Source of the DNA: Hyphomicrobiales bacterium
Lineage (GTDB): Bacteria > Pseudomonadota > Alphaproteobacteria > Rhizobiales > Aestuariivirgaceae
DNA length: 64,000 bases
Reading direction: 5' to 3'
Assembly: GCA_031416755.1 (NCBI GenBank)
Contig: JANOUE010000023.1
Coordinates: 34,972-98,971, forward strand
Part shown: positions 53,731 through 63,814 of the stretch, piece after piece
Position numbering within the stretch: the first letter of the stretch is position 1
Layout: each line of letters starts with the position of its first letter
Made by a program: the position numbers and the translations under genes
Notes under the pieces: model-generated
Database searches by the model: none
Told to the model about the DNA's origin: nothing
What the model saw: the letters and a program-made list of their open reading frames with translations, nothing else

Positions 53731-54312
53731 TCAGCGTTTCTTGGCAACCTTCTTAGGGGGGGTTTTTTTGGCCGCAGGTTTTTTCACTGTGGCTTTTTTC
53801 ACTGTGGCTTTTTTCGCAGCAAGTTTCTTGACCGCTGCTTTTGGTTTTGTTGGCTTGACAGCCGCACCTTGTGCTTTCATGAGGCTTCCAAATTTGGTGA
53901 AAAACTGTCCAGCCAGCGATTGTGCTGTTGAATCAATCAGTCGTGAACCTAGCATTGCCAGCTTGCCACCGATTTGGGCGTCAACAGTAAAGTCCATTTG
54001 AGTTTGCGTGGGCGACAAAGCCGTGAGCTTCACTGTGGCTCCGCCTTCAGCAAAGCCTACAATGCCGCCTTGGCCTTTGCCAGAAATACGGTAGCTTTCT
54101 GGCGCTTTCAATTCAGACAATGTCACTTCACCCGCAAACGATGCTTTCACGGGCCCCACTTTAATGACTACGGTTGCTTTCATTTGGGTGGGTGAGGACG
54201 ATTCGATTTTATCACAACCCGGAATGCAGGCTTGCAAAATTTTGGGATCGTTCAGTCCCTTCCACACAGTTTCGCGTGGCGCGTCGATCACTTGGCTTCC
54301 GTTCATTTTCAT
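53731..54312 (-). CDS. coxG: CoxG (SRPBCC/START-like) protein with a Lys/Ala-rich basic C-terminal tail
   Basis: APRE.VW..LNDP..L..CIPGC, VGPVKA.F, G.G.GG..G.A.G and GGKLA.LGSRLID motifs; tail KKATVKKATVKKPAAKK. Confidence 0.85.
   Translation of the reverse strand: MKMNGSQVIDAPRETVWKGLNDPKILQACIPGCDKIESSSPTQMKATVVIKVGPVKASFAGEVTLSELKAPESYRISGKGQGGIVGFAEGGATVKLTALSPTQTQMDFTVDAQIGGKLAMLGSRLIDSTAQSLAGQFFTKFGSLMKAQGAAVKPTKPKAAVKKLAAKKATVKKATVKKPAAKKTPPKKVAKKR
53780..53812 (-). repeat. Tandem 15-bp repeat encoding KKATV-KKATV in the CoxG tail
   Basis: TTTTTTCACTGTGGC occurs twice in tandem on the + strand. Confidence 0.8.
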
Positions 54313-54530
54313 GGTCGCGCTCCGATATTATGATCTGATTTTTTGGCGGCGCTTGGCCGTGATCTGGAGAAAATTGATAGCGCAATTTCTTCGGGCGAGA
54401 TAGCGCCAATGTCGACCCCATCTGGTGTTTTGATGGTATCAAATTTCTCTGGGGATGCCTAAGCCCCAACCAGCTTCTCGCGCATCAAAGCCATTTTTCC
54501 GCCTCCGCCCGCCAAAGCTTATATTTAGAA
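54309..54530 (-). pseudogene. C-terminal remnant of a CoxF/XdhC-family gene (absent from ORF track)
   Basis: Manual translation: (F)GGRRRK, +1 frameshift, then MALMREKLVGA*ASPEKFDTIKTPDGVDIGAISPEEIALSIF, matching the XdhC C-terminal signature (FVGSRRK...P.G.DIGA..PEEIALSI). In-frame TAG at 54461-54459; the stop overlaps the coxG ATG. Confidence 0.75.
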
Positions 54531-54560
54531 TCAATAAGCTTCTTGTAACCTCAAGGCGGT

Positions 54561-55589
54561 TTAAACGCTTTCGCGCGTATAGGTCTCAAACGGCAAAACG
54601 ATTATCTGCTTGCCAGATTCTGCACCGAGCTTGATGGCACGCAGCATGCCGGTGATCGTCTCTTGGGCAAGGCGCTCAAGTGGATGGCCGAGTAACATCG
54701 TCAAGGTGCCATCAAGCAGACCCGCACGGGTGTCCTCGGTCAATTCGAATCCGAGGCCCATGATTTGCCCGGCTTTGCCACGGGTACGAAGAGCATTCAT
54801 CGCGCCTGAGATTCCGCCACCTGCGATGAAAAGGCCGATGAGATCGGGATTTTCGTCAATCAGGTTTTCGGTCATTTCTTCAGCCACCGCACTTGTCTCA
54901 AATGTCGCAAGTGGTTCGAGGATAGTGAATTCGGGAGCCATTTCGCGGAAGTAAGAGCGGAAACCAATCTCGTTCATCTCTTGGCAGCGGTAGCGATAAT
55001 TGCCGACGAGCACGCCAATTTTTCCTGGTGACTTACAGATGTGATGGAAGGCCCATGCTGCAGCACGACCCAGCTTCCAATTGTCAAGCCCAACATAGTT
55101 GACGCCGTCTGCTTGTGAGAGATGTGAGATCAGCGCAAACACTGGAACGTCCTTGGCCTGTAAGATGGTGACTGCATTTGTGACCAACGGATGCACAGAA
55201 GTTACCACACCCACTGCGTTGCAACGCTCTCCCAGTTTAAGCAGTGTTGCCGCGATGGCCTGCGGGGCCAAATCTTCGGCATAAATAATTTCCGTTTCAA
55301 TTTTTTGATCGCCATGCGCGCGCGCCGCTGCTTCAAGTGCAGCGCCCAGCATCTTGTAGAACTTACGGGAAGGTTGTTGGAGGAGAAATCCAAGTCTCAG
55401 TTTGGGTTTGCGCGAGATGATTTTGGCTTGGATGGCACGAACCCCATAATAGCCAATGCGTTCAGCTGCATCTTTGACCTGTTGAACCGTGTGATCGCGC
55501 ACGGTATTATCACCGGCGAGCACCCGGTTCACGGTTGAAACCGAAACACTGGCCTCGGTGGCTAAATCTCGAATGGTCGGTCGTGTCAT
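54561..55589 (-). CDS. LacI-family transcriptional regulator
   Basis: TIRDLA.EASVS.STV.RVL HTH followed by a periplasmic-binding-fold effector domain; divergent from the ABC operon. Confidence 0.92.
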   Translation of the reverse strand: MTRPTIRDLATEASVSVSTVNRVLAGDNTVRDHTVQQVKDAAERIGYYGVRAIQAKIISRKPKLRLGFLLQQPSRKFYKMLGAALEAAARAHGDQKIETEIIYAEDLAPQAIAATLLKLGERCNAVGVVTSVHPLVTNAVTILQAKDVPVFALISHLSQADGVNYVGLDNWKLGRAAAWAFHHICKSPGKIGVLVGNYRYRCQEMNEIGFRSYFREMAPEFTILEPLATFETSAVAEEMTENLIDENPDLIGLFIAGGGISGAMNALRTRGKAGQIMGLGFELTEDTRAGLLDGTLTMLLGHPLERLAQETITGMLRAIKLGAESGKQIIVLPFETYTRESV

Positions 55590-55783
55590 TTCCAGCAGGC
55601 CCTGTATCAGTTGTCTCAATGCATAGAAACAAAAGACACAAAAAAGATGAAATGAAAGTGTCTCTATAGCTCATCTTGTATCTTGAACTATCTCATGTCA
55701 ATGCTGTTTTCGTAGTCCTCATGGGCATTTCCGTCTTTGAGGCAGTAAAATCGTCGGCAAGACGAAAACCCGGAGGATACAAA

Positions 55784-56764
55784 ATGAAATCGATGAAATT
55801 AGCTCTTCTTGCGGCTGCGACCGCATTTGCAGTCAGCGGCTTTGCCACCTCGGCACTGGCCGAAGGCGCAAAGATTTTTGTGGTTGGCGGCAAAGCTGAC
55901 GATCCATTCTGGTCGATCGTAAAGCGCGGCGCTGAAGATGCTGCCAAAGTTGTGGAAGCTCAAGGCGGCACAGTTACGTGGCTTGCTCCACAAAATTACG
56001 ACAATCTCGGTGTAGACGCTGCGGAATTGATCCGTCAGGCGATTGCCCAAGGTGCAACTGGCGTGGTGGCCCCAAACTGGGTTCCAGACGCAATGGATCC
56101 AGCTTTCAAAGCTGTTGCTGATGCCAAAATTCCATTTATTGTCTACAATGCTGGCGGCATTGAAGCTGCTGATCGTTTGGGCGCTATGAACTATGTAGGT
56201 GCGGTCGATTACCTCGGTGGTGTAGCTGGTGGTGAATACCTCGGCAAAGCCGGCATGAAGGATGGTGTCTGCATCAATTCTCTCCCAGGTGCAGCTAACA
56301 TTGAAGCTTATTGCAAAGGCTTTGTTGATGGCATCACCAAAACCGGTGGCAAGGCTGACGTGCTGCCACTTCCGGCAACAGCCGAAGGCAACGTGACTGC
56401 TGTAGCCCAAGCCGTCAAGGCCTATCTGGTTGAGCATCCAACCGTCAATGCAGTGTTCACCACAGCCAATCTCGATGCGATTGGCGCAGTGCAGGGCATT
56501 GCCGAAGCTGGCAAAGCCGGTGCCGTAAAAGTCTGTGGCATCAACTTTGATGAAGGCATTCTGGCCCAAATCAGTGCTGGCACCCAATCCTGCGCCATCG
56601 ATCAACAGGGCTATCAGCAGGGCTTTTTTGCCGTGTCGATCCTGAACGGTTACATCAACTATGGTTTGAGCATTCCAACACGCGAAATTCTGACCGGACC
56701 TGGCGTGGTGGATGTGACCAACATTGCGTCAACAATGTCTGGTGCCAAGTCGGGAACGCGCTAA
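55784..56764 (+). CDS. Sugar/cyclitol ABC transporter substrate-binding protein (CUT2)
   Basis: RBS GGAGG; signal peptide MKSMKLALLAAATAFA...SALA; DPFW..VKRG, R..GF and IDQQ.YQQG motifs. Confidence 0.9.
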   Translation: MKSMKLALLAAATAFAVSGFATSALAEGAKIFVVGGKADDPFWSIVKRGAEDAAKVVEAQGGTVTWLAPQNYDNLGVDAAELIRQAIAQGATGVVAPNWVPDAMDPAFKAVADAKIPFIVYNAGGIEAADRLGAMNYVGAVDYLGGVAGGEYLGKAGMKDGVCINSLPGAANIEAYCKGFVDGITKTGGKADVLPLPATAEGNVTAVAQAVKAYLVEHPTVNAVFTTANLDAIGAVQGIAEAGKAGAVKVCGINFDEGILAQISAGTQSCAIDQQGYQQGFFAVSILNGYINYGLSIPTREILTGPGVVDVTNIASTMSGAKSGTR

Positions 56765-56785
56765 GATTACTGCACTCTGAACTTG

Positions 56786-56826
56786 GACTGCTCGGCCAGT
56801 TGCTCCTTGGCCGGGCAGTCATTTTC
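56786..56826 (+). terminator. Stem-loop after the SBP gene (partial terminator or mRNA stabiliser)
   Basis: GACTGCTCGGCCA-N9-TGGCCGGGCAGTC (13-bp stem, one G:U) followed by ATTTTC. Confidence 0.65.
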
Positions 56827-56849
56827 AAAGCATTGTTGGAAACACAGTC

Positions 56850-57872
56850 ATGGCCACACACATTAAAATGCCGAGGTTTGCGCCGCCTTTACTGGGCCGT
56901 CTGGCCCGTCGGCCAGAGGCTGGTTCATTGCTCGGACTGATTGTTGTCTACGTGTTTTTCGCAATTCTCGGCGGACAGAATTTTCTTGGGTCACTGGGCT
57001 GGTCGAGTTGGCTGAACATGGCCGCTGAAGTTGGCATCATTGCCTTACCCATCGGCCTTTTAATGATCGCTGGAGAACTTGACATCTCGGTCGGTGCTGT
57101 GCTTCCGGCGTCGAGCTTAACGGTTGCCCTCATCTCTGGTTTTTATGACTTGCCAATCATCCTCGGTATTGCAGGCGGTCTTGCCGTTGGTCTGGCTGTT
57201 GGCTTCGTCAATGGCCTGCTGGTTACCCAAACAAGAATTCCCTCTCTCATCATCACCATCGGCACGATGTTTGCTGTGATGGGGTTGTCGCTTGGTTTTA
57301 CCATCATGATCAAGGGATCCACTGGTGTTTTCATCGTGCCTGATCCGTTCACAAAATCACTCCTCGGTGCTGCCATCGGCGGCGTTTTCCGGGTTGGCAT
57401 TCTGTGGTGGCTGGTCTTCATTGGCATCGTCTACTATCTGCTGCATGTCAGTCCTTGGGGCAATGGGGTCTTCGCCCTTGGTGGCGACCGCGAGAGCGCG
57501 CGCAATGCCGGCATAGCAACTAAAAAACTCACCATGCAACTCTATATGCTGTCAGGATTTGCCGCGGCCTTCGTCGGTGTCATGCAAGTTATCGCCAATG
57601 GCAGCGCACAAGTCGCAGCGGGCAGTTCCTTCATCTTCAATTCAATCATGTGTGTTGTCATCGGGGGTGTTTTGCTTAATGGCGGTGCTGGCTCAGTGAT
57701 CGGCATCGTGCTTGGCACCATGACCTTTGCCATCGTCAACCAGGGGATATTTTATTCGGGACTCGATCCGAATTTTGGCTCGATCATCATCGGTGCAATG
57801 CTCCTCGCTGCCGTACTGTCCAATGACAAGTTCCGCGCCCTTGCCCTCAGTTATGCGGCCAAGAGAAAGTGA
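56850..57872 (+). CDS. Sugar ABC transporter permease 1 (RbsC-like)
   Basis: LMIAGE.DISVG, G..NG.LVT, PS.I.T.G, GN.VFA.GG..ESAR.AGI and V.IGG..L.GG.G motifs. Confidence 0.92.
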   Translation: MATHIKMPRFAPPLLGRLARRPEAGSLLGLIVVYVFFAILGGQNFLGSLGWSSWLNMAAEVGIIALPIGLLMIAGELDISVGAVLPASSLTVALISGFYDLPIILGIAGGLAVGLAVGFVNGLLVTQTRIPSLIITIGTMFAVMGLSLGFTIMIKGSTGVFIVPDPFTKSLLGAAIGGVFRVGILWWLVFIGIVYYLLHVSPWGNGVFALGGDRESARNAGIATKKLTMQLYMLSGFAAAFVGVMQVIANGSAQVAAGSSFIFNSIMCVVIGGVLLNGGAGSVIGIVLGTMTFAIVNQGIFYSGLDPNFGSIIIGAMLLAAVLSNDKFRALALSYAAKRK

Positions 57873-58870
57873 GTGCCGCAATGGAAATGATTGGCACCTT
57901 TTTACGACGCCCCGCCGCTGCCTCGGTTCTGAGTTTGCTTGGCATCCTGGCATTCTATGTGATCTTCGGCGGTGTTGACATTTACAGACTGGCAACTGCG
58001 GCAAGCTGGATGAACTTGGCAGCAAACCTCGGCATCGTTGCAATCCCAGTAGGCCTTCTGATGATCGCAGGGCAGATCGATATTTCCATTGGAGCAATGA
58101 TCCCGGCGGGGTCGATTTCCACGGCAATTATTTCGGGCCACTACGGCCTGCCAATTGAGGTCGGCATGGTGGCCGCAATTGGGCTGGGTGTTCTGGTCGG
58201 CTTGGTCAACGGACTTCTGACAGTGCGCACCACTGTGCCGTCGTTGATCATCACATTGGGCACCCTTATCGCCATGCAGGGTGTCGTTCTCAGCGCGGCG
58301 ATGCTTATCGTTGGAAAAGCCAGCGTTCCGCTCAAGGCACCAGAATGGTCCAAATTCGTGTTCGGCCAATTGTTGGGTGGAACGCATCAGGTCATCATCT
58401 TGTGGTGGATCGCCTTGGCTGTGGTGCTTGCATTCGTCCTTCACAAGACCCGCTATGGCAATTGGATCTATGCGCTCGGCGGTGACAAAGTGTCAGCCCG
58501 CAACGCCGGCATTCCGACAAATCGGGTGACTATCGCGCTTTTCGTCTTGTCGGCAACCGCTGCAAGTTTCGTCGGCATGTGCCAGGCCATCCTGTTCAAC
58601 TCATCGCAGGTTTCAGGCGGCATGGGTTACATTTTCAATGCAATTTCCAGCGTGGTGGTCGGAGGTGTCTTGCTGACCGGAGGCTTTGGATCGGTGGCGG
58701 GAATTTTCGTCGGCACGCTAACCTTCGCCATCGTCATCCAGGGCATTTACTTCACGCAGATCGACCGCAACTGGTCCAATCTCATCATCGGAATAACACT
58801 TCTACTTGCCATGGCGATGAATGAGAAGTTCCGCAGCTTGGCGCTGGCCTATGTGCCGAAAAAGAAGTGA
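57869..58870 (+). CDS. Sugar ABC transporter permease 2 (RbsC-like)
   Basis: LMIAGQIDISIG, KT.YGNWIYALGG...SAR.AGI and VVGGVLLTGG.GS motifs. Confidence 0.92.
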   Translation: MSAAMEMIGTFLRRPAAASVLSLLGILAFYVIFGGVDIYRLATAASWMNLAANLGIVAIPVGLLMIAGQIDISIGAMIPAGSISTAIISGHYGLPIEVGMVAAIGLGVLVGLVNGLLTVRTTVPSLIITLGTLIAMQGVVLSAAMLIVGKASVPLKAPEWSKFVFGQLLGGTHQVIILWWIALAVVLAFVLHKTRYGNWIYALGGDKVSARNAGIPTNRVTIALFVLSATAASFVGMCQAILFNSSQVSGGMGYIFNAISSVVVGGVLLTGGFGSVAGIFVGTLTFAIVIQGIYFTQIDRNWSNLIIGITLLLAMAMNEKFRSLALAYVPKKK

Positions 58871-58878
58871 GTGACACC

Positions 58879-59667
58879 ATGAAACCCCCTATTCTTGCCC
58901 TCAAGAACGTCAGTAAATCATTTGGCCCCATAGAGGTTTTGAACGACATATCGCTGCAAGTTCGTGCAGGCGAAGTGCTGTGCCTGTTGGGCGACAATGG
59001 TGCAGGCAAATCGACGCTCATCAAAATCTTGTCGGGCGTCTATACGCTCACATCAGGTCAAATGGAAATGGACGGGAAACCCGTCACCTTCACCAATCCA
59101 CGTGAGGCAAGCGCCATGGGCATTGCCACCGTGCACCAGTTCGGCGGCACGTTTCCGCTGATGAGCATTGGTCGCAGTTTCTTTGTGGGTGTTGAACCGA
59201 CGAAGGGTTGGGGGCCATTCAAAATCTATGATCGTAAAACCGCCAACGAAGTTGCCGTCAAAGCGGTGCAGGACTTCGGCATCACCCGTATAGATGATGG
59301 CGATCGTCTGGTGGGCGGGCTCTCGGGTGGCGAACGTCAATCATTGGCCATTGCGCGTGCCGTTCATTTCGGTGCGCGAGTTCTCATTCTTGATGAACCA
59401 ACAGCTGCCCTTGGTGTCAAGCAAGCTTCGCATGTCCTGCGCATTGTCAACCAAGCCAAGAAGCGCGGTCTCGCCGTGATTTTTATCACGCATCAAGTCA
59501 TGCATGCCATGGCTGTGGGCGACCACTTTGCGGTGTTGATCCGAGGTGCCGTCGCTGCTGATTTCCGCAAAGGCCAAAAGACCCGCGAAGAAATTACCGA
59601 CCTCATGGCTGGCGGCGAAACCATGGCGGCACTCGAGGCAGAAGTTGAAGGGAAAGTTCATGGATGA
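58879..59667 (+). CDS. Sugar ABC transporter ATP-binding protein (single NBD)
   Basis: Walker A GDNGAGKS, signature LSGGERQ, Walker B LILDEPT and the H-loop ITH. Confidence 0.94.
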   Translation: MKPPILALKNVSKSFGPIEVLNDISLQVRAGEVLCLLGDNGAGKSTLIKILSGVYTLTSGQMEMDGKPVTFTNPREASAMGIATVHQFGGTFPLMSIGRSFFVGVEPTKGWGPFKIYDRKTANEVAVKAVQDFGITRIDDGDRLVGGLSGGERQSLAIARAVHFGARVLILDEPTAALGVKQASHVLRIVNQAKKRGLAVIFITHQVMHAMAVGDHFAVLIRGAVAADFRKGQKTREEITDLMAGGETMAALEAEVEGKVHG

Positions 59668-60664
59668 CTTGCAAAGTGGGACGCGAAACAAACGCGGCGA
59701 TTGGAATCCCAAAGAACCGATTGGACTGGCTGCCTATCTGACATGGCCACGTGAGCCTCGGAAATACCTTGAATGGTTGGTCGGCTATTTGTTTCCCTGG
59801 AACCTGCTGTTCATTGCTGTGGCGCTGGTGCAATGGTTCTATCTTACGCCATCCATCGAAACGCTGAAAACTTTGCAGCTGGATTGGATTGCCTACCTCT
59901 TTGCACGCAATGCGCTTTTGGTTCTTGTCATTTACGGTGCACTGGAACTCCGGCTTTACGTCAAGCGTGCACAGGGCAATCATTTCAAATTCAACGGCAA
60001 GTGGCCTTCCGAGCAGCCCAGCGATGTGTTCATGTTCAAGAACCAGAACATCGACAACATCATTCGTTCCTTTGCCTCAGGTGTTCCGATCTGGACAGCC
60101 TATGAAGTGTTTGGCTTGTGGTGCTATGCCAACGGCTATGGACTGTGGGGAACCTTCGCAGAATATCCCATCTGGTTCATCGCATTTGCTTTTGTGATGC
60201 CAGTTTATCATGAGGTGCACTTCTACTGCATTCATCGCTTGATCCACGTTCCGATTTTCTACAAATACATTCATTCGGTGCATCACAACTCGGTCAACCC
60301 AAGCCCCTGGTCAAGCCTGTCGATGCACCCAATTGAGCATCTCCTGTACTGGTCAGACTCTCTCATTCATCTCATTGTCCCATCTCACCCCTTGCTGTTC
60401 CTCTACAATTTGCAAATCACTGGCACAGGTGCCGTTGTTGGTCACATTGGCTTTGACAAAATGGAACTGGGTAAAAATACTGGCTTTGATACACACGCCT
60501 TTGCCCATTACCTGCACCACAAGCATTTTGAAGTAAACTACGCTGATGGTGCAACTGGCATCGACAAGCTGTTTGGCACTTGGCACGATGGCAGCAAAGA
60601 AGCGCAGGCCCAAATGGAGGCGCGCTATGAAAAGAAGATCGCAAAGGTAAACGCAAAATCATGA
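59660..60664 (+). CDS. Membrane His-box di-iron enzyme, sterol desaturase/fatty-acid hydroxylase superfamily
   Basis: His boxes HEVH, HRLIH, HSVHH, HP.E, GH.G and HYLHH; hydrophobic helices; NY and D.LFGT near the C-terminus. Confidence 0.88.
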   Translation: MDDLQSGTRNKRGDWNPKEPIGLAAYLTWPREPRKYLEWLVGYLFPWNLLFIAVALVQWFYLTPSIETLKTLQLDWIAYLFARNALLVLVIYGALELRLYVKRAQGNHFKFNGKWPSEQPSDVFMFKNQNIDNIIRSFASGVPIWTAYEVFGLWCYANGYGLWGTFAEYPIWFIAFAFVMPVYHEVHFYCIHRLIHVPIFYKYIHSVHHNSVNPSPWSSLSMHPIEHLLYWSDSLIHLIVPSHPLLFLYNLQITGTGAVVGHIGFDKMELGKNTGFDTHAFAHYLHHKHFEVNYADGATGIDKLFGTWHDGSKEAQAQMEARYEKKIAKVNAKS

Positions 60665-61656
60665 CACTTCGTATTGGCATCATTGGTGCAGGCATCATGG
60701 GGGCAGATCATGCCCGTATATTTTCTGAGGAAGTGCCGGGAACAACTTTGCAGGTTATTTGTGACGCCGACCAAGCACGCGCAAAATCGGTCGCAGAAGC
60801 CACAGGTGCAATGCATGTGGTGAGCGATCCACTCGCGGTGATCAATGACGCATCGGTTGACGCCGTCGTCATTGCAGCACCTGACCAATTTCATGCACCA
60901 CTGACATTGGCTTGCATCGCAGCAGGAATGCCCGTGTTGTGTGAAAAGCCCCTCTCACAGGATTCGAAGGAATGCCTGGCGGTGCTGGCAGCTGAGGAAA
61001 AGCGTGGCAAGCACCTTGTGCAAATCGGCTTCATGCGCCGCTTCGACCCATCCTATACCGAAATAAAATCGCTGTTGACACGCGGCGATCTTGGAAAAGC
61101 GCTGATGTTTCATTGTTTCCACCGCAATGTGGCCCCGGCCTATGGCTTTCAAGCGTCCATGGCGATTTGCAATTCAGCACCACATGAATTCGATGTTGCA
61201 CGGTGGATGCTGGATTCGGATTTCAAATCCATCAGCGTCTTCCGTCCACCCTGTGGCGGTCAAACCGCGCCCGTGTTTATGGTGCTCGAAACCATCGCAG
61301 GCCAGCTCGTCAACATTGAAGTCAACATCAGCGCTACCTATGGCTATGACGTGCGCGCTGAATTGGTGGGCGAAAAGGGAACTGCTTTCCTTCGCGCACC
61401 TGTGAATGCCGACATCAACCTTGGCCTCAAACAGATCAACACTTACCCCGCTGACTGGCGCCCGCGCTTTGTGGATGCCTACCGCCAACAAAACCGCGCA
61501 TGGGTCAAATCCGTGCAAACCGGCAAACCCAATCTCGGTGCCTCGGCTTGGGATGGCTATTGTTCCACCGCTGTTGCCGAAGCAGGCGTTGAAGCCTTGA
61601 ACACGGGCAAGACTGTTGCTGTGACGCAGATTGCAAAACCCAAGTTTTATATGTGA
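60661..61656 (+). CDS. Gfo/Idh/MocA oxidoreductase (inositol 2-dehydrogenase-like)
   Basis: IG.IG.G.MG.DH, VLCEKPL, Q.GFMRRFD, HE.D..RW and GYDVR.E.VGE.G motifs. Confidence 0.9.
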   Translation: MTLRIGIIGAGIMGADHARIFSEEVPGTTLQVICDADQARAKSVAEATGAMHVVSDPLAVINDASVDAVVIAAPDQFHAPLTLACIAAGMPVLCEKPLSQDSKECLAVLAAEEKRGKHLVQIGFMRRFDPSYTEIKSLLTRGDLGKALMFHCFHRNVAPAYGFQASMAICNSAPHEFDVARWMLDSDFKSISVFRPPCGGQTAPVFMVLETIAGQLVNIEVNISATYGYDVRAELVGEKGTAFLRAPVNADINLGLKQINTYPADWRPRFVDAYRQQNRAWVKSVQTGKPNLGASAWDGYCSTAVAEAGVEALNTGKTVAVTQIAKPKFYM

Positions 61657-61663
61657 GGCCACA

Positions 61664-62626
61664 ATGAAAATCGGAATGGTCACGGACTCACTTGGGCATT
61701 TGTCGTTCGATCAGATGCTCGACACGGCGGCCCAACTGGGAATTGAAGGCGTTGAGTTCAACGCCGCCAACTGGACATCAGCCCCGCATTTGCATCTGAA
61801 ATCTCTGCTCAGCGACACTGCCGCGCGGAAAACATTTGTTGCTGCGGTAAAGCAGCGCAACCTCGAGATCATCGCACTCAATGCCAATGGCAACCAACTC
61901 CACCCCACAGAAGGCGATACGCAATCAGAAGCCTTGCATGACACGATCCGTCTGGCCGGAGAACTCGGCCTCGAAACCATCGTGCTAATGTCCGGCCTGC
62001 CTGAAGGTGCTGCTGGGGATAAAATGCCAAACTGGGTTGTGTCATCATGGCCGCCAGAAACCCAGACCATGTTGAAATATCAATGGGAAGAACGCGCACT
62101 TCCCTATTGGGCCAAGCTTGCAACCTTTGCTCAGGAGCATGGCGTCAAAAAATTAGCCGTTGAACTGCATGGCAATCAACTGGTTTACAATGTGCCCAGC
62201 TTGTTGCGCTTGCGTAAAGAAATTGGCCCCATCGTGGGTGCCAATCTCGATCCGTCTCATTTGATGTGGATGGGCGCTGATCCGCTGGCGGCAATCGATG
62301 CATTGGGTTCGGCCATCCTGCACATCCACGCCAAAGACACCTTCATCAATAAGCCAGTTGCAGCACTGACCAGCCGACTTGAGAATGGCTCACTGATGGA
62401 TATTCCGGGTCGTGCCTGGAGCTATATCACTCTGGGCTATGGCAACGGCCAGCAATTCTGGAAAGACTTCTGCTACCGCTTGCGCATGGTGGGGTATGAC
62501 GGCTGGCTCTCCATCGAACATGAAGACGTGATGCTGTCGCGTGTTGAGGGTGTGCGAAAATCAGTTGAACTCCTGCAAGCCGTCGCCCCGTCTGAAACCA
62601 GCGACTACAAACCACAGGAATTCTGA
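61664..62626 (+). CDS. Sugar-phosphate isomerase/epimerase TIM barrel (IolE/IolH/MocC-like)
   Basis: GN.LHP, AVELHG, GANLDPSHL.W, HIHAKD and YDG.LSIEHED metal-binding motifs. Confidence 0.88.
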   Translation: MKIGMVTDSLGHLSFDQMLDTAAQLGIEGVEFNAANWTSAPHLHLKSLLSDTAARKTFVAAVKQRNLEIIALNANGNQLHPTEGDTQSEALHDTIRLAGELGLETIVLMSGLPEGAAGDKMPNWVVSSWPPETQTMLKYQWEERALPYWAKLATFAQEHGVKKLAVELHGNQLVYNVPSLLRLRKEIGPIVGANLDPSHLMWMGADPLAAIDALGSAILHIHAKDTFINKPVAALTSRLENGSLMDIPGRAWSYITLGYGNGQQFWKDFCYRLRMVGYDGWLSIEHEDVMLSRVEGVRKSVELLQAVAPSETSDYKPQEF

Positions 62627-62630
62627 CGCA

Positions 62631-62838
62631 ATATTGCAGATAGGCCTAGGAGGTTATGGAACGGGCGGGCGGCATTTCCACACGCCTTTCATCGCCGCCG
62701 CAAGCAATTGCATCCTCGCTGGTATCGTCGCCAATGCCCCCAAAACCATCGCAGCGGCAATGGTCCGCTTGGCTCAAGACACTGATCTACGCCAGTTTAA
62801 GCCAGAAGAGTGCAGTGCGAACCTGTGATGCCGTCACC
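62631..62838 (+). pseudogene. Second Gfo/Idh/MocA oxidoreductase, decayed 5' fragment
   Basis: ATA at the expected start position, then LQIGLGGYGTGGRHFHTPFI...LAGIVA; after a frameshift, IYASL...DAVT (62785-62838); similarity then ends near the IS. Confidence 0.75.
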
Positions 62839-62858
62839 GATGTCTTAGGTACAAAATG

Positions 62859-63257
62859 TTACCTATGCCTCAGGACTATACCCGCAGAGGTTCATCACAA
62901 TGCCTTTACGCTTCAACATCTGATGCAATCTGCGATAGCCAAATCTCTTTTTTGAGTTGATATCTTTCAACATCAAATTGTCGAGCAGGCTATCGGCCAG
63001 CAGCTTCTTCAGCTTGGCGTTCTCATCTTCAAGCTGCGTCAACTTACGGGCATCGCTCACATCCATGCCGCCAAGCCGTGCTTTCCACTTAAAAAACGTC
63101 GCCTTGCCAATCGCATGCTTGCGGCACCGGTCAGCAACTGTCATGCCGCCCTCTTGCTCACGCAATATCCCGATAATCTGCTCTGCTTCATCGTCTTCTC
63201 CTTAAAAACGGGATCAGACTCTACTCACTTTTGGATCAATTTGCAGGGCTCAGGTCA
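62859..63257 (-). mobile_element. Internally deleted IS3-family (IS407-group-like) remnant
   Basis: Left end TGACCTGAGCCC... at 63257; RBS GGAG; ATG 63191; OrfA (REQEGG..V...CRKH.I...TF.KWK...GGM.VSDA.KL..LEDENAKLKKLLA); A6G slippery site joined to the OrfB fragment RFGYRRLH; possible degenerate right end at 62859-62871. Confidence 0.85.
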
Positions 63258-63814
63258 GTGCGATTGCCCTTGCGGTCATCAGCGGTGTGGGCTTGAGCGC
63301 CTCCGATCTGTTGCACATTGCCAGGGTGTTTGGCATGGCGACGATCCACGTGATGTACTGCTTTTTACTCGGCTTCATGTTCACACTGAGCTTCAAAAGA
63401 ATGCCATCGGCTTTGCTGGTTGCCGTCGCGGTCTGGCTCGCTCTCGTGCTCATAAAGCCGCTGATTGGCGACACGCTTGATCCCGACAATCAAGTGGCGG
63501 GCGGCGTCTTCCGCACGCTGGGCGTTGCAAAGCCTTTGGAAAAAGAAATCATCAAATCATTCGCGACCTATGAAACCATCCGCAATGGCATCGAAGAAGC
63601 TTTCCCTGCCAAGCATCTGGAGCGGTTCAGTTTCGCTGTACTCGGCATCAAGGACATCTACAACGGTCAACTCCTGGCCGACGTAATTCGTGATCGCGCG
63701 CGAGACGCCTGGTGGCTGATTGCCACATTCGCAGCCCTCGTCTTGGCGCTGTTTTTGCGTCCCCTCAACATAACCCGACTCACAAAGGAAGAGACCCATG
63801 ACAAAAACTTTTAG
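63258..63814 (+). pseudogene. 3' part of a membrane protein (ABC-2-type permease-like), 5' end lost at the IS boundary
   Basis: An open frame begins right at the IS left end (AIALAVISGVGL...Y.F.LG..F.L.FKR...ALLVAVAVWL) with no convincing RBS/ATG; ends with a TM helix. The family call is by eye only. Confidence 0.5.

Follow-up and report, generated by a model that had tools for sequence, protein, structure and literature searches.

Here we describe an operon in a 64-kb stretch of Hyphomicrobiales DNA (64,000 nt of contig JANOUE010000023.1, hereafter the window) in which the gene for a membrane di-iron protein of the FA_hydroxylase superfamily lies between the genes of a sugar-type transporter and those of two putative cyclitol-processing enzymes. 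We use DiFe as a short name for this protein, which is encoded at 59660-60664. Our best explanation of the operon, to which we would give a probability of roughly 55%, is that it is a LacI-controlled uptake-and-feeder system for a substituted cyclitol or a close sugar derivative, with DiFe oxidising the imported compound. That DiFe acts on an imported, soluble carbohydrate of some kind appears very probable from the genes that accompany it.

A di-iron oxygenase gene as an integral member of an uptake operon

The window was read by listing its open reading frames (ORFs) and searching the predicted proteins against profiles, which bore out every gene position given in a preliminary description of this DNA. 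The features are as follows.

54561-55619, minus strand: LacI-family repressor (PF00356, 40.9 bits; Peripla_BP_4, 85.3 bits), divergent from the operon
55620-55780, no strand: divergent intergenic control region of 161 nt between the LacI and binding-protein genes
55781-56764, plus strand: periplasmic substrate-binding protein, CUT2 type, MocB-like (PF13407, 104 bits; signal peptide visible)
56850-57872, plus strand: ABC permease 1 (PF02653, 134.6 bits)
57869-58870, plus strand: ABC permease 2 (PF02653, 143.1 bits), with a 4-nt overlap with the permease 1 ORF
58867-59667, plus strand: single-domain ABC ATPase of 266 amino acids (PF00005, 105 bits)
59660-60664, plus strand: DiFe, predicted integral-membrane di-iron oxygenase of the FA_hydroxylase superfamily, 334 amino acids (PF04116, 65.5 bits)
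60661-61656, plus strand: putative IolG-like NAD-dependent cyclitol dehydrogenase (Gfo/Idh/MocA; PF01408 and PF02894)
61664-62626, plus strand: putative xylose-isomerase-like TIM-barrel enzyme (isomerase, epimerase or dehydratase; PF01261, 102.7 bits)
62637-62828, plus strand: N-terminal remnant of a possible second Gfo/Idh/MocA-type gene (weak PRK11579 match)
62863-63165, minus strand: IS3-family transposase OrfA remnant (HTH_Tnp_1, 55.7 bits), at which the 3' end of the operon is disrupted

Each of the eight genes, from LacI through to the TIM barrel, is intact, and from permease 1 to the TIM barrel consecutive ORFs either overlap or lie no more than 7 nt apart. The ATG of DiFe, at 59660, is 8 nt inside the ATPase ORF (ATPase stop codon 59665-59667), while an ATGA at 60661-60664 forms the junction between DiFe and the dehydrogenase, a 4-nt overlap; both junctions read as the preliminary description had them. 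Its view that the di-iron gene is an integral member of the operon is upheld by these overlaps with both neighbours and by the selection acting on the gene. Across five relatives (77-82% nucleotide identity), and with synonymous sites saturated in this comparison, dN/dS is 0.04-0.06 for DiFe, 0.04-0.05 for the dehydrogenase and 0.04-0.07 for the TIM barrel, and the purifying selection on DiFe is indistinguishable from that on the other two.

The genes iolD, iolB, iolC, iolJ and iolA are absent from the 64 kb, and we therefore regard the operon as a feeder module rather than as the inositol pathway itself. Imperfect palindromes are present at 55603-55640 and 55728-55768, at the divergent region between the LacI and binding-protein genes, to which we assign no operator. 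Promoter and terminator scans of 54300-63400 stayed at chance level, the promoter-like matches not exceeding the expectation from shuffled sequence.

Assignment of DiFe to the FA_hydroxylase superfamily

DiFe matches PF04116 over residues 179-307, well above the gathering cut-off of 31 bits. The three histidine boxes named in the preliminary description are all present (HRLIH at 192-196, HSVHH at 205-209 and HYLHH at 283-287), together with two further histidine motifs, HEVH at 184-187 and HPIEH at 223-227. In an alignment of 32 sequences of 28-88% identity, eight histidines are invariant (H192, H196, H205, H208, H209, H262, H286 and H287), and H223 and H283 are at least 90% conserved. DiFe thus has the eight histidines in HX3-4H, HX2-3HH and HX2-3HH boxes that characterise the superfamily, and hydrophobic segments at 39-66, 74-95 and 173-191 agree with its integral-membrane, multi-helix character.

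A model of DiFe produced by AF2 from a diverse alignment is confident (pLDDT 92.2, pTM 0.89) and has long helices at 33-62, 74-101, 129-157 and 170-194; an earlier model from 31 close homologs was discarded (pLDDT 57). Sequence and profile searches of the PDB gave no solved relative, and the best match in a Foldseek search of the confident model against the PDB had an E of 6.8, although the tool may be limited on helical membrane proteins. Family membership consequently rests on the Pfam match and the histidine boxes, and what we take from the model is a predicted layout of helices only. Database names of DiFe relatives are all generic, of the type 'sterol desaturase/sphingolipid hydroxylase'.

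The N-terminal 178 residues of DiFe are conserved yet lie outside the Pfam domain. Residues 1-30 (window 59660-59750) carry the motif MDDLxFGTRNKRGDWxP, a small beta-hairpin in the model, and this motif is also kept in a fused enzyme that is 45% identical and comes from a 40%-GC organism. The hairpin might serve in ferredoxin docking or as a lid.

Homologs of DiFe in carbohydrate loci

Relatives of DiFe number 2,898 proteins at E <= 1e-5 in a 90%-clustered collection, and 3,152 clusters (50% identity) at E <= 1e-3, with 122 at E <= 1e-30. Scanning one genome per species yielded 123 relatives, and 79 loci were examined. Neighbourhoods (labelled L) were read by tblastn with the window proteins, by our own gene calls using a GC3-minus-GC2 score, and by clustering of the proteins (representatives labelled P). 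The genomes closest to the window are Aestuariivirga and Hyphomicrobiales metagenome-assembled genomes (MAGs).

Two layouts recur. In one, a LacI gene diverges from the order substrate-binding protein, permease, ATPase, DiFe, dehydrogenase, TIM barrel; in the other it diverges from DiFe, substrate-binding protein, permease and ATPase, in some cases followed by the dehydrogenase. Of the homologs, 49 are flanked on each side by 5 kb or more, and for 35 of these one or more LacI, ABC, Gfo/Idh/MocA or TIM-barrel partners lie within 5 kb, an ABC component being found in 29 and LacI in 26. A hydroxypyruvate-isomerase-like TIM barrel lies within 6 kb of DiFe in 17 of 77 loci. The conserved context spans Hyphomicrobiales, Rhodobacterales, Comamonadaceae and rhizobial plasmids. 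The neighbourhood analysis that the preliminary description had proposed therefore comes out as it anticipated, with the homologs strongly associated with LacI, CUT2-type ABC, Gfo/Idh/MocA and TIM-barrel genes.

The neighbours themselves are related to those in the window. The window LacI is 45-61% identical to LacI proteins encoded directly divergent from DiFe homologs (L011, L057, L039, L014 and others), permease 1 is 80% identical to its counterpart in L008, and permease 2 is 84-88% identical to its counterparts in L008 and L067. The ATPase shares 78-94% identity with ATPases beside DiFe homologs in more than 25 loci, and the TIM barrel 81-92% with the product of the gene at the same position in L002-L005, L010, L015 and L067. 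The system centred on DiFe is real and widespread, and its gene content suggests a feeder operon of moc-like logic (see below).

More distant contexts differ in the pathway served. The locus of P0123 (45% identity) reads ABC ATPase, DiFe, FGGY kinase, XylA-like isomerase, DUF1537 kinase and aldolase. In the case of P0129 (40% identity; L086:8001-9853 and L087:4571-6423), the DiFe relative overlaps a gene for a PanB-like hydroxymethyltransferase homolog in a LysR-controlled cluster that also encodes a 3-hydroxyacyl-CoA-dehydrogenase-family (3HCDH) protein, a class II aldolase and PhyH, with a homolog of the MTTB methyltransferase and an aconitase-family protein encoded divergently. Outside the sugar loci, this pairing of DiFe and PanB-like proteins possibly serves methylated-amine catabolism. 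A DiFe-type enzyme thus recurs in catabolic loci for different soluble compounds, which plausibly have in common a blocking substituent in need of oxidative removal.

We also observed DiFe paralogs. A Rhodobiaceae MAG (JANMPF010000496.1) has, at L067:1545-2552, a paralog of 53% identity with one in-frame stop in the same overlapping slot of an operon that is otherwise about 90% identical to that of the window (permease 2 88%, ATPase 89%, dehydrogenase 91%, TIM barrel 87%). The stop may reflect a pseudogene or an assembly error, and the arrangement suggests that DiFe paralogs are swapped like cassettes. Many genomes have two paralogs, approximately 75% and 55% identical to the query, which lie either within a single super-cluster or on different contigs (L010 5264-6274 and 10001-11002; L075 2637-3701 and 9941-11020; L002 and L055 from the same MAG), which hints at multi-step or multi-substrate oxidation. 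L010 additionally has a convergent trio of mocD-, mocE- and mocF-like genes and a second LacI gene.

Ferredoxin and reductase partners

A Rieske ferredoxin of the MocE family (TIGR02377; 179.6 bits, cut-off 136) is encoded within 6 kb of DiFe in 16 of 77 loci, abutting it in nine, and a MocF-like reductase is found in several plasmid loci, so that the set predicted in the preliminary description (ABC transporter, Gfo/Idh/MocA, Rieske ferredoxin and reductase) does exist. On a plasmid of Fuscovulum ytuae, where DiFe is 63% identical to that of the window, a LacI gene is followed by genes annotated as sterol desaturase family protein, substrate-binding protein, permease, ATPase, 'MocE family 2Fe-2S type ferredoxin', Gfo/Idh/MocA and sugar phosphate isomerase/epimerase; to judge from these assignments, this is the window operon plus a ferredoxin. 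Rhizobium leguminosarum Vaf-108 has the order substrate-binding protein, permease, ATPase, dehydrogenase, TIM barrel, DiFe and 'fatty acid desaturase family protein', the last being 60% identical to the MocD-like cluster, and this locus adjoins iolE and iolD. Sinorhizobium meliloti 1021 has, on pSymA, a minimal LacI-DiFe-MocE-like module beside an insertion sequence (IS), its DiFe protein (AAK65779.1 / Q92XW9) being annotated just as 'desaturase'. Overlapping DiFe and MocE genes occur in Rhizobium sp. CIAT894 with genes for a MocF-like reductase, a TIM barrel and S-(hydroxymethyl)glutathione dehydrogenase, while Bradyrhizobium and Paracoccus yeei plasmids carry DiFe, MocE, reductase and TIM-barrel genes together with sugar-ABC genes. 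Reductase, ferredoxin and terminal oxygenase stand together in L092, L093 and L094, though not in the window. Among the annotated plasmid loci, none but that of R. leguminosarum has a MocD-like gene, so that in the others the ferredoxin and reductase must serve DiFe.

In P0124 (45% identity over the full length) and P0161, DiFe is fused to FAD_binding_6, NAD_binding_1 and Fer2 domains. These fusions are direct sequence evidence for a family of NAD(P)H-driven oxygenases that take their electrons through a [2Fe-2S] centre. The P0124 locus (L083:8001-10034, GCA_041642475.1, a 40%-GC genome) encodes GH95, SASA and GDSL esterases, an AraC regulator, a RhaT transporter, a TIM barrel, a URO-D-family protein and rhamnose mutarotase (RhaM). 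It resembles a polysaccharide-utilisation locus, and the fused reductase is FNR-like with a plant-type 2Fe-2S domain. Being self-sufficient, such fusions would lend themselves to biochemical work.

Proposed substrate and reaction

Three further proteins of the operon bear on what is imported. By far the top NCBIfam match of the binding protein is the rhizopine binding protein model NF052284, over the full length (170.3 bits, E = 5e-50), against 33 bits for RbsB; the score lies below the NF052284 cut-off of 420, leaving the protein outside the MocB rhizopine equivalog, and its nearest solved relative is 4RU1 (E = 6e-23). The dehydrogenase and the Bacillus subtilis inositol 2-dehydrogenase 3MZ0 align over their whole lengths (E = 2e-59), 3EC7 is a further match (E = 3e-67), and on these alignments we regard it as IolG-like despite scores below both IolG equivalog cut-offs (NF052679, 263 against 540; TIGR04380, 192.9 against 355). 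The TIM barrel belongs to the Pfam family of IolE and IolI and has 2ZDS as its sole solved relative (E = 1e-18). It reaches only 38.8 bits with the IolE model TIGR04379 (cut-off 290), so that it too falls below the equivalog cut-off, and the label 'IolE/MocC-type' that the preliminary description gave it is not established. We propose a cyclitol derivative as the substrate because of the IolG alignment, the rhizopine-binding-protein match and the adjacency to iolE and iolD, and since only the IolG-like and TIM-barrel steps are encoded, the operon would feed the general iol pathway, as the moc genes do.

Turning to the reaction, PanB-like hydroxymethyltransferase homologs (PF02548, below the panB cut-offs) are encoded within 6 kb of DiFe in 25 of 77 loci, and in the closest intact relatives, L002, L003 and L010, the PanB-like gene directly follows the TIM barrel. 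Such recurrent one-carbon neighbours, with a formaldehyde dehydrogenase found once, would favour an oxidative demethylation. The plant partners of rhizobia accumulate O-methyl inositols, and that the hosts of DiFe include rhizobia with such partners is one reason why demethylation is our best single guess. The others are the precedent within the superfamily for ether cleavage by alkylglycerol monooxygenase (AGMO), the recurrence of neighbours that handle one-carbon units (PanB-like proteins and, once each, formaldehyde dehydrogenase and a URO-D-family protein), and the same logic in P450 sugar demethylases (PMC6292453).

In the mechanism that we propose, the compound would be imported by the MocB-like binding protein and the CUT2-type ABC transporter. 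DiFe, with its active site predicted at the cytoplasmic face, would be the terminal oxygenase of a chain running from NAD(P)H through an FAD reductase and a [2Fe-2S] ferredoxin to the di-iron centre, the reductase and ferredoxin presumably being encoded outside the window. It would oxidise the imported water-soluble molecule, the likeliest reaction being hydroxylation of a methyl substituent; a hydroxylated methyl ether would collapse to a free hydroxyl and a one-carbon unit, leaving as formaldehyde or, with a PanB-like partner, as methylene-tetrahydrofolate. The unblocked cyclitol would then be converted to an inosose by the IolG-like dehydrogenase, and the inosose would be isomerised or dehydrated by the TIM-barrel enzyme to enter the general iol pathway, encoded elsewhere. 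More tentatively, and at what we would put as somewhat under even odds, DiFe and its relatives may form a dedicated clade of membrane di-iron carbohydrate or cyclitol demethylases, fed by MocE or fused to a reductase and hydroxylating the methyl substituents of imported O-methyl inositols or O-methyl sugars, from which the one-carbon unit leaves as formaldehyde or passes via the PanB-like protein to tetrahydrofolate.

A different chemistry in the same operon is an equally mechanistic alternative, albeit one that we think unlikely. Here DiFe would hydroxylate a C-H of a deoxy-cyclitol or deoxy-sugar, or convert a C-methyl branch (as in laminitol or mytilitol) into a hydroxymethyl group. In the C-methyl version, the IolG-like enzyme would make a ketone and the PanB-like protein would then transfer the hydroxymethyl group to tetrahydrofolate by a retro-aldol reaction, a carbohydrate equivalent of what ERG25 does in the C4-demethylation of sterols. 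By default, enzymes of the superfamily hydroxylate C-H bonds and methyl groups (ERG25, FA2H, CrtZ), and the PanB reaction is itself a hydroxymethyl transfer at a carbon adjoining a ketone, which would suit the PanB-like genes that accompany DiFe in those 25 of 77 loci, follow the dehydrogenase and TIM barrel in L002, L003 and L010, and overlap DiFe in L086. However, C-methyl and deoxy cyclitols are far rarer in nature than O-methyl ethers, the PanB-like gene is missing from most loci (the window included), and the formaldehyde dehydrogenase of CIAT894 better fits free formaldehyde released from an ether. The computed data do not separate C-H or C-methyl hydroxylation from O-demethylation.

Several points weigh against our preferred explanation, that DiFe oxidises an imported cyclitol derivative, most likely by O-demethylation. 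To our knowledge, all characterised members of the FA_hydroxylase superfamily act on lipids, sterols or carotenoids, and a full-text literature search found no paper on the function of this DiFe clade. Thirteen of the 49 well-flanked homologs have none of the partners listed above, and remote relatives, of 39% identity and below (P0130, P0131, P0137), have no carbohydrate context and are uninformative. As the model has no structural neighbour in the PDB, the substrate pocket cannot be read from it. The one-carbon evidence is circumstantial, given that the PanB-like proteins could have another role, and formaldehyde dehydrogenase, a neighbour in only 1 of 94 loci (CIAT894), is not used by us as strong evidence. 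Pinitol is usable by bacteria through iol genes, no bacterial demethylase having been identified (PMC9788770), so that a demethylase is not obligatory for the use of methyl-inositols. Lastly, since the window has no ferredoxin or reductase gene and the 3' end of the operon is broken by the IS, this particular copy may be impaired. The 'fatty acid hydroxylase' of PMC5789663 is a different, nod-co-regulated gene.

The 3' end of the operon

That the window contains no electron-transfer partner, as the preliminary description had noted, was confirmed by tblastn, which found no MocE, MocF, MocD, PanB-like, Hyi-like or FNR-plus-Fer2 gene within the 64 kb. The accompanying suggestion that the partner was lost at the IS is not supported: the gene after the TIM barrel in the intact loci L002, L003 and L010 is PanB-like and not a ferredoxin, and in L005 and L015 the gene at this position is unrelated, with no ferredoxin there either. 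Intact close relatives therefore also lack a cluster ferredoxin, and a partner encoded in trans would be normal for the clade.

Immediately downstream of the TIM barrel, the preliminary description had placed a second decayed dehydrogenase. A remnant of approximately 64 codons is indeed present at 62637-62828, but the identification is weaker than stated, its only support being a 42-residue match to PRK11579 (positions 5-46, E = 0.0015), and blastx found no counterpart in the related loci. The gene interrupted by the IS would appear to be a different, Gfo-type gene that the related loci do not have. The IS at 62863-63165 is itself a remnant, comprising about 100 amino acids of an IS3 OrfA (NF033516, 48.4 bits, below the cut-off).

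DNA nearly identical to the window was found in freshwater-sediment metagenomes. Metagenome contigs break at approximately 62650-63230, where word depth changes (for example from ~20 to ~8 in two runs), and contigs of a strain that is ~95% identical have different sequence to the right of 62886. The 3' junction of the operon is thus polymorphic in the natural population. No intact downstream version of the operon was recovered from the metagenome reads.

One could imagine from this junction that the operon is a decaying relic in this genome, the IS3 event having removed downstream genes and left DiFe with no redox partner and no longer functional. The IS3 remnant and truncated dehydrogenase gene at 62637-63165 would fit such a history, as would the absence of ferredoxin, reductase and PanB-like genes from the window and the in-frame stop in the DiFe paralog of the sister operon L067. 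We nevertheless consider it improbable, given that LacI, the TIM barrel and the six genes between them are all intact, that dN/dS is 0.04-0.06, that intact close relatives are likewise without a cluster ferredoxin, which makes a partner in trans normal, and that only 64 kb of the genome is in view.

Transposase genes also flank the module on S. meliloti 1021 pSymA (L082:6823-8488; DDE_3 and rve-type ORFs), as the IS3 remnant does in the window, and many DiFe homologs are plasmid-borne (112 PLSDB records). The DiFe module looks mobile.

Relation to known systems

The closest comparison is with the moc rhizopine cluster of S. meliloti L5-30 and R. leguminosarum (MocB, MocA, MocC and MocDEF), the organisation of which has been described (PMC10107442). 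The two systems have in common a cyclitol-type binding protein, a Gfo/Idh/MocA dehydrogenase, a TIM-barrel enzyme and a membrane His-box di-iron oxygenase, with, among the relatives of DiFe, a Rieske ferredoxin of the MocE family and a MocF-like reductase to serve it; like the moc genes, the operon of the window would feed the iol pathway. They differ in that DiFe belongs to PF04116 (FA_hydroxylase) whereas MocD belongs to PF00487 (FA_desaturase), in that the regulator is LacI and not MocR (GntR/aminotransferase-type), in that the binding protein scores 170 against the rhizopine equivalog cut-off of 420, and in that the window lacks MocE and MocF. Some loci have both DiFe and a MocD-like gene, so that the two are not simple substitutes for one another. 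We therefore treat the comparison with moc as an analogy and not as membership. On its profile scores the system falls outside the moc, IolG and IolE groups, while it would work like a moc-type feeder built around a different enzyme family.

A second comparison is with AGMO (TMEM195), a eukaryotic, tetrahydrobiopterin-dependent enzyme acting on lipid ethers, whereas DiFe is bacterial, ferredoxin-associated and encoded in a soluble-carbohydrate operon. AGMO cleaves its ether by alpha-hydroxylation and has an eight-histidine motif (PMC3304488, PMC3617469); DiFe is likened to it, by description of the motif and not by alignment, in its eight-histidine di-iron membrane motif and in the ether-cleaving chemistry that we propose. 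In marine polysaccharide utilisation loci, a P450 6-O-methyl-D-galactose demethylase with its ferredoxin and reductase removes a blocking methyl ether and releases formaldehyde (PMC6292453). The likeness here is in the placing of oxygenase, ferredoxin and reductase inside a carbohydrate utilisation locus; the P450 is a soluble haem protein of unrelated fold and known substrate, whereas DiFe is a membrane di-iron protein.

ERG25/SMO, FA2H/Scs7p, SUR2, CrtZ and CH25H share PF04116 and the histidine boxes with DiFe, and enzymes of this type oxidise a methyl group or C-H using O2 and an external electron donor. Their substrates are lipophilic, the eukaryotic ones use cytochrome b5, and DiFe differs further in matching no solved structure by profile or model and in having its N-terminal 178 residues outside the Pfam domain. 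A classical lipid role, in which DiFe would modify a membrane lipid (fatty acyl, hopanoid, ornithine-lipid or glycolipid) or an amphiphilic alkyl or acyl glycoside and be co-expressed with the transporter for regulatory or membrane-remodelling reasons only, would agree with the family membership, the integral-membrane character, the 'sterol desaturase/sphingolipid hydroxylase' names and the relatives outside sugar loci, and yet is very unlikely in view of the translational coupling of DiFe in soluble-carbohydrate catabolic operons of at least three pathway types, its placement under LacI repressors, its pairing with MocE ferredoxins, which are soluble, in the manner of the rhizopine oxygenase, its position adjoining iolE and iolD in R. 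leguminosarum, and neighbourhoods that contain no lipid-metabolism genes. The genomic context argues instead for a soluble carbohydrate over a lipid, sterol or carotenoid.

Among the soluble carbohydrates that are most plentiful in legumes, conifers and many algae are O-methyl inositols, pinitol and ononitol for example, and plant and algal polysaccharides carry methylated sugars. The literature that we searched yielded no bacterial enzyme dedicated to the demethylation of cyclitols, and the only well-described sugar demethylase was a soluble P450. If the demethylase reading is correct, DiFe would supply the missing bacterial enzyme for the use of methyl-cyclitols (pinitol, ononitol) in rhizobia and freshwater heterotrophs, and would bring the first water-soluble substrate class, and with it a wider chemistry and substrate range, to the sterol-desaturase/fatty-acid-hydroxylase superfamily. 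It would also give a function to thousands of genes now named 'sterol desaturase family protein' under 'lipid metabolic process', among them the copies that Sinorhizobium, Rhizobium, Bradyrhizobium and Mesorhizobium have on symbiosis plasmids, and would indicate a so far unrecognised one-carbon transfer step by PanB-like proteins. Circuits for plant-microbe signalling in the rhizopine style could also gain new parts from it.

Next to the LacI gene, on its upstream side, the window has an ORF of 193 amino acids (53731-54312, minus strand) that ends in a long, repetitive, Lys/Ala/Pro-rich tail (…KPKAAVKKLAAKKATVKKATVKKPAAKKTPPKKVAKKR) that resembles histone-H1-like or DNA-binding tails.

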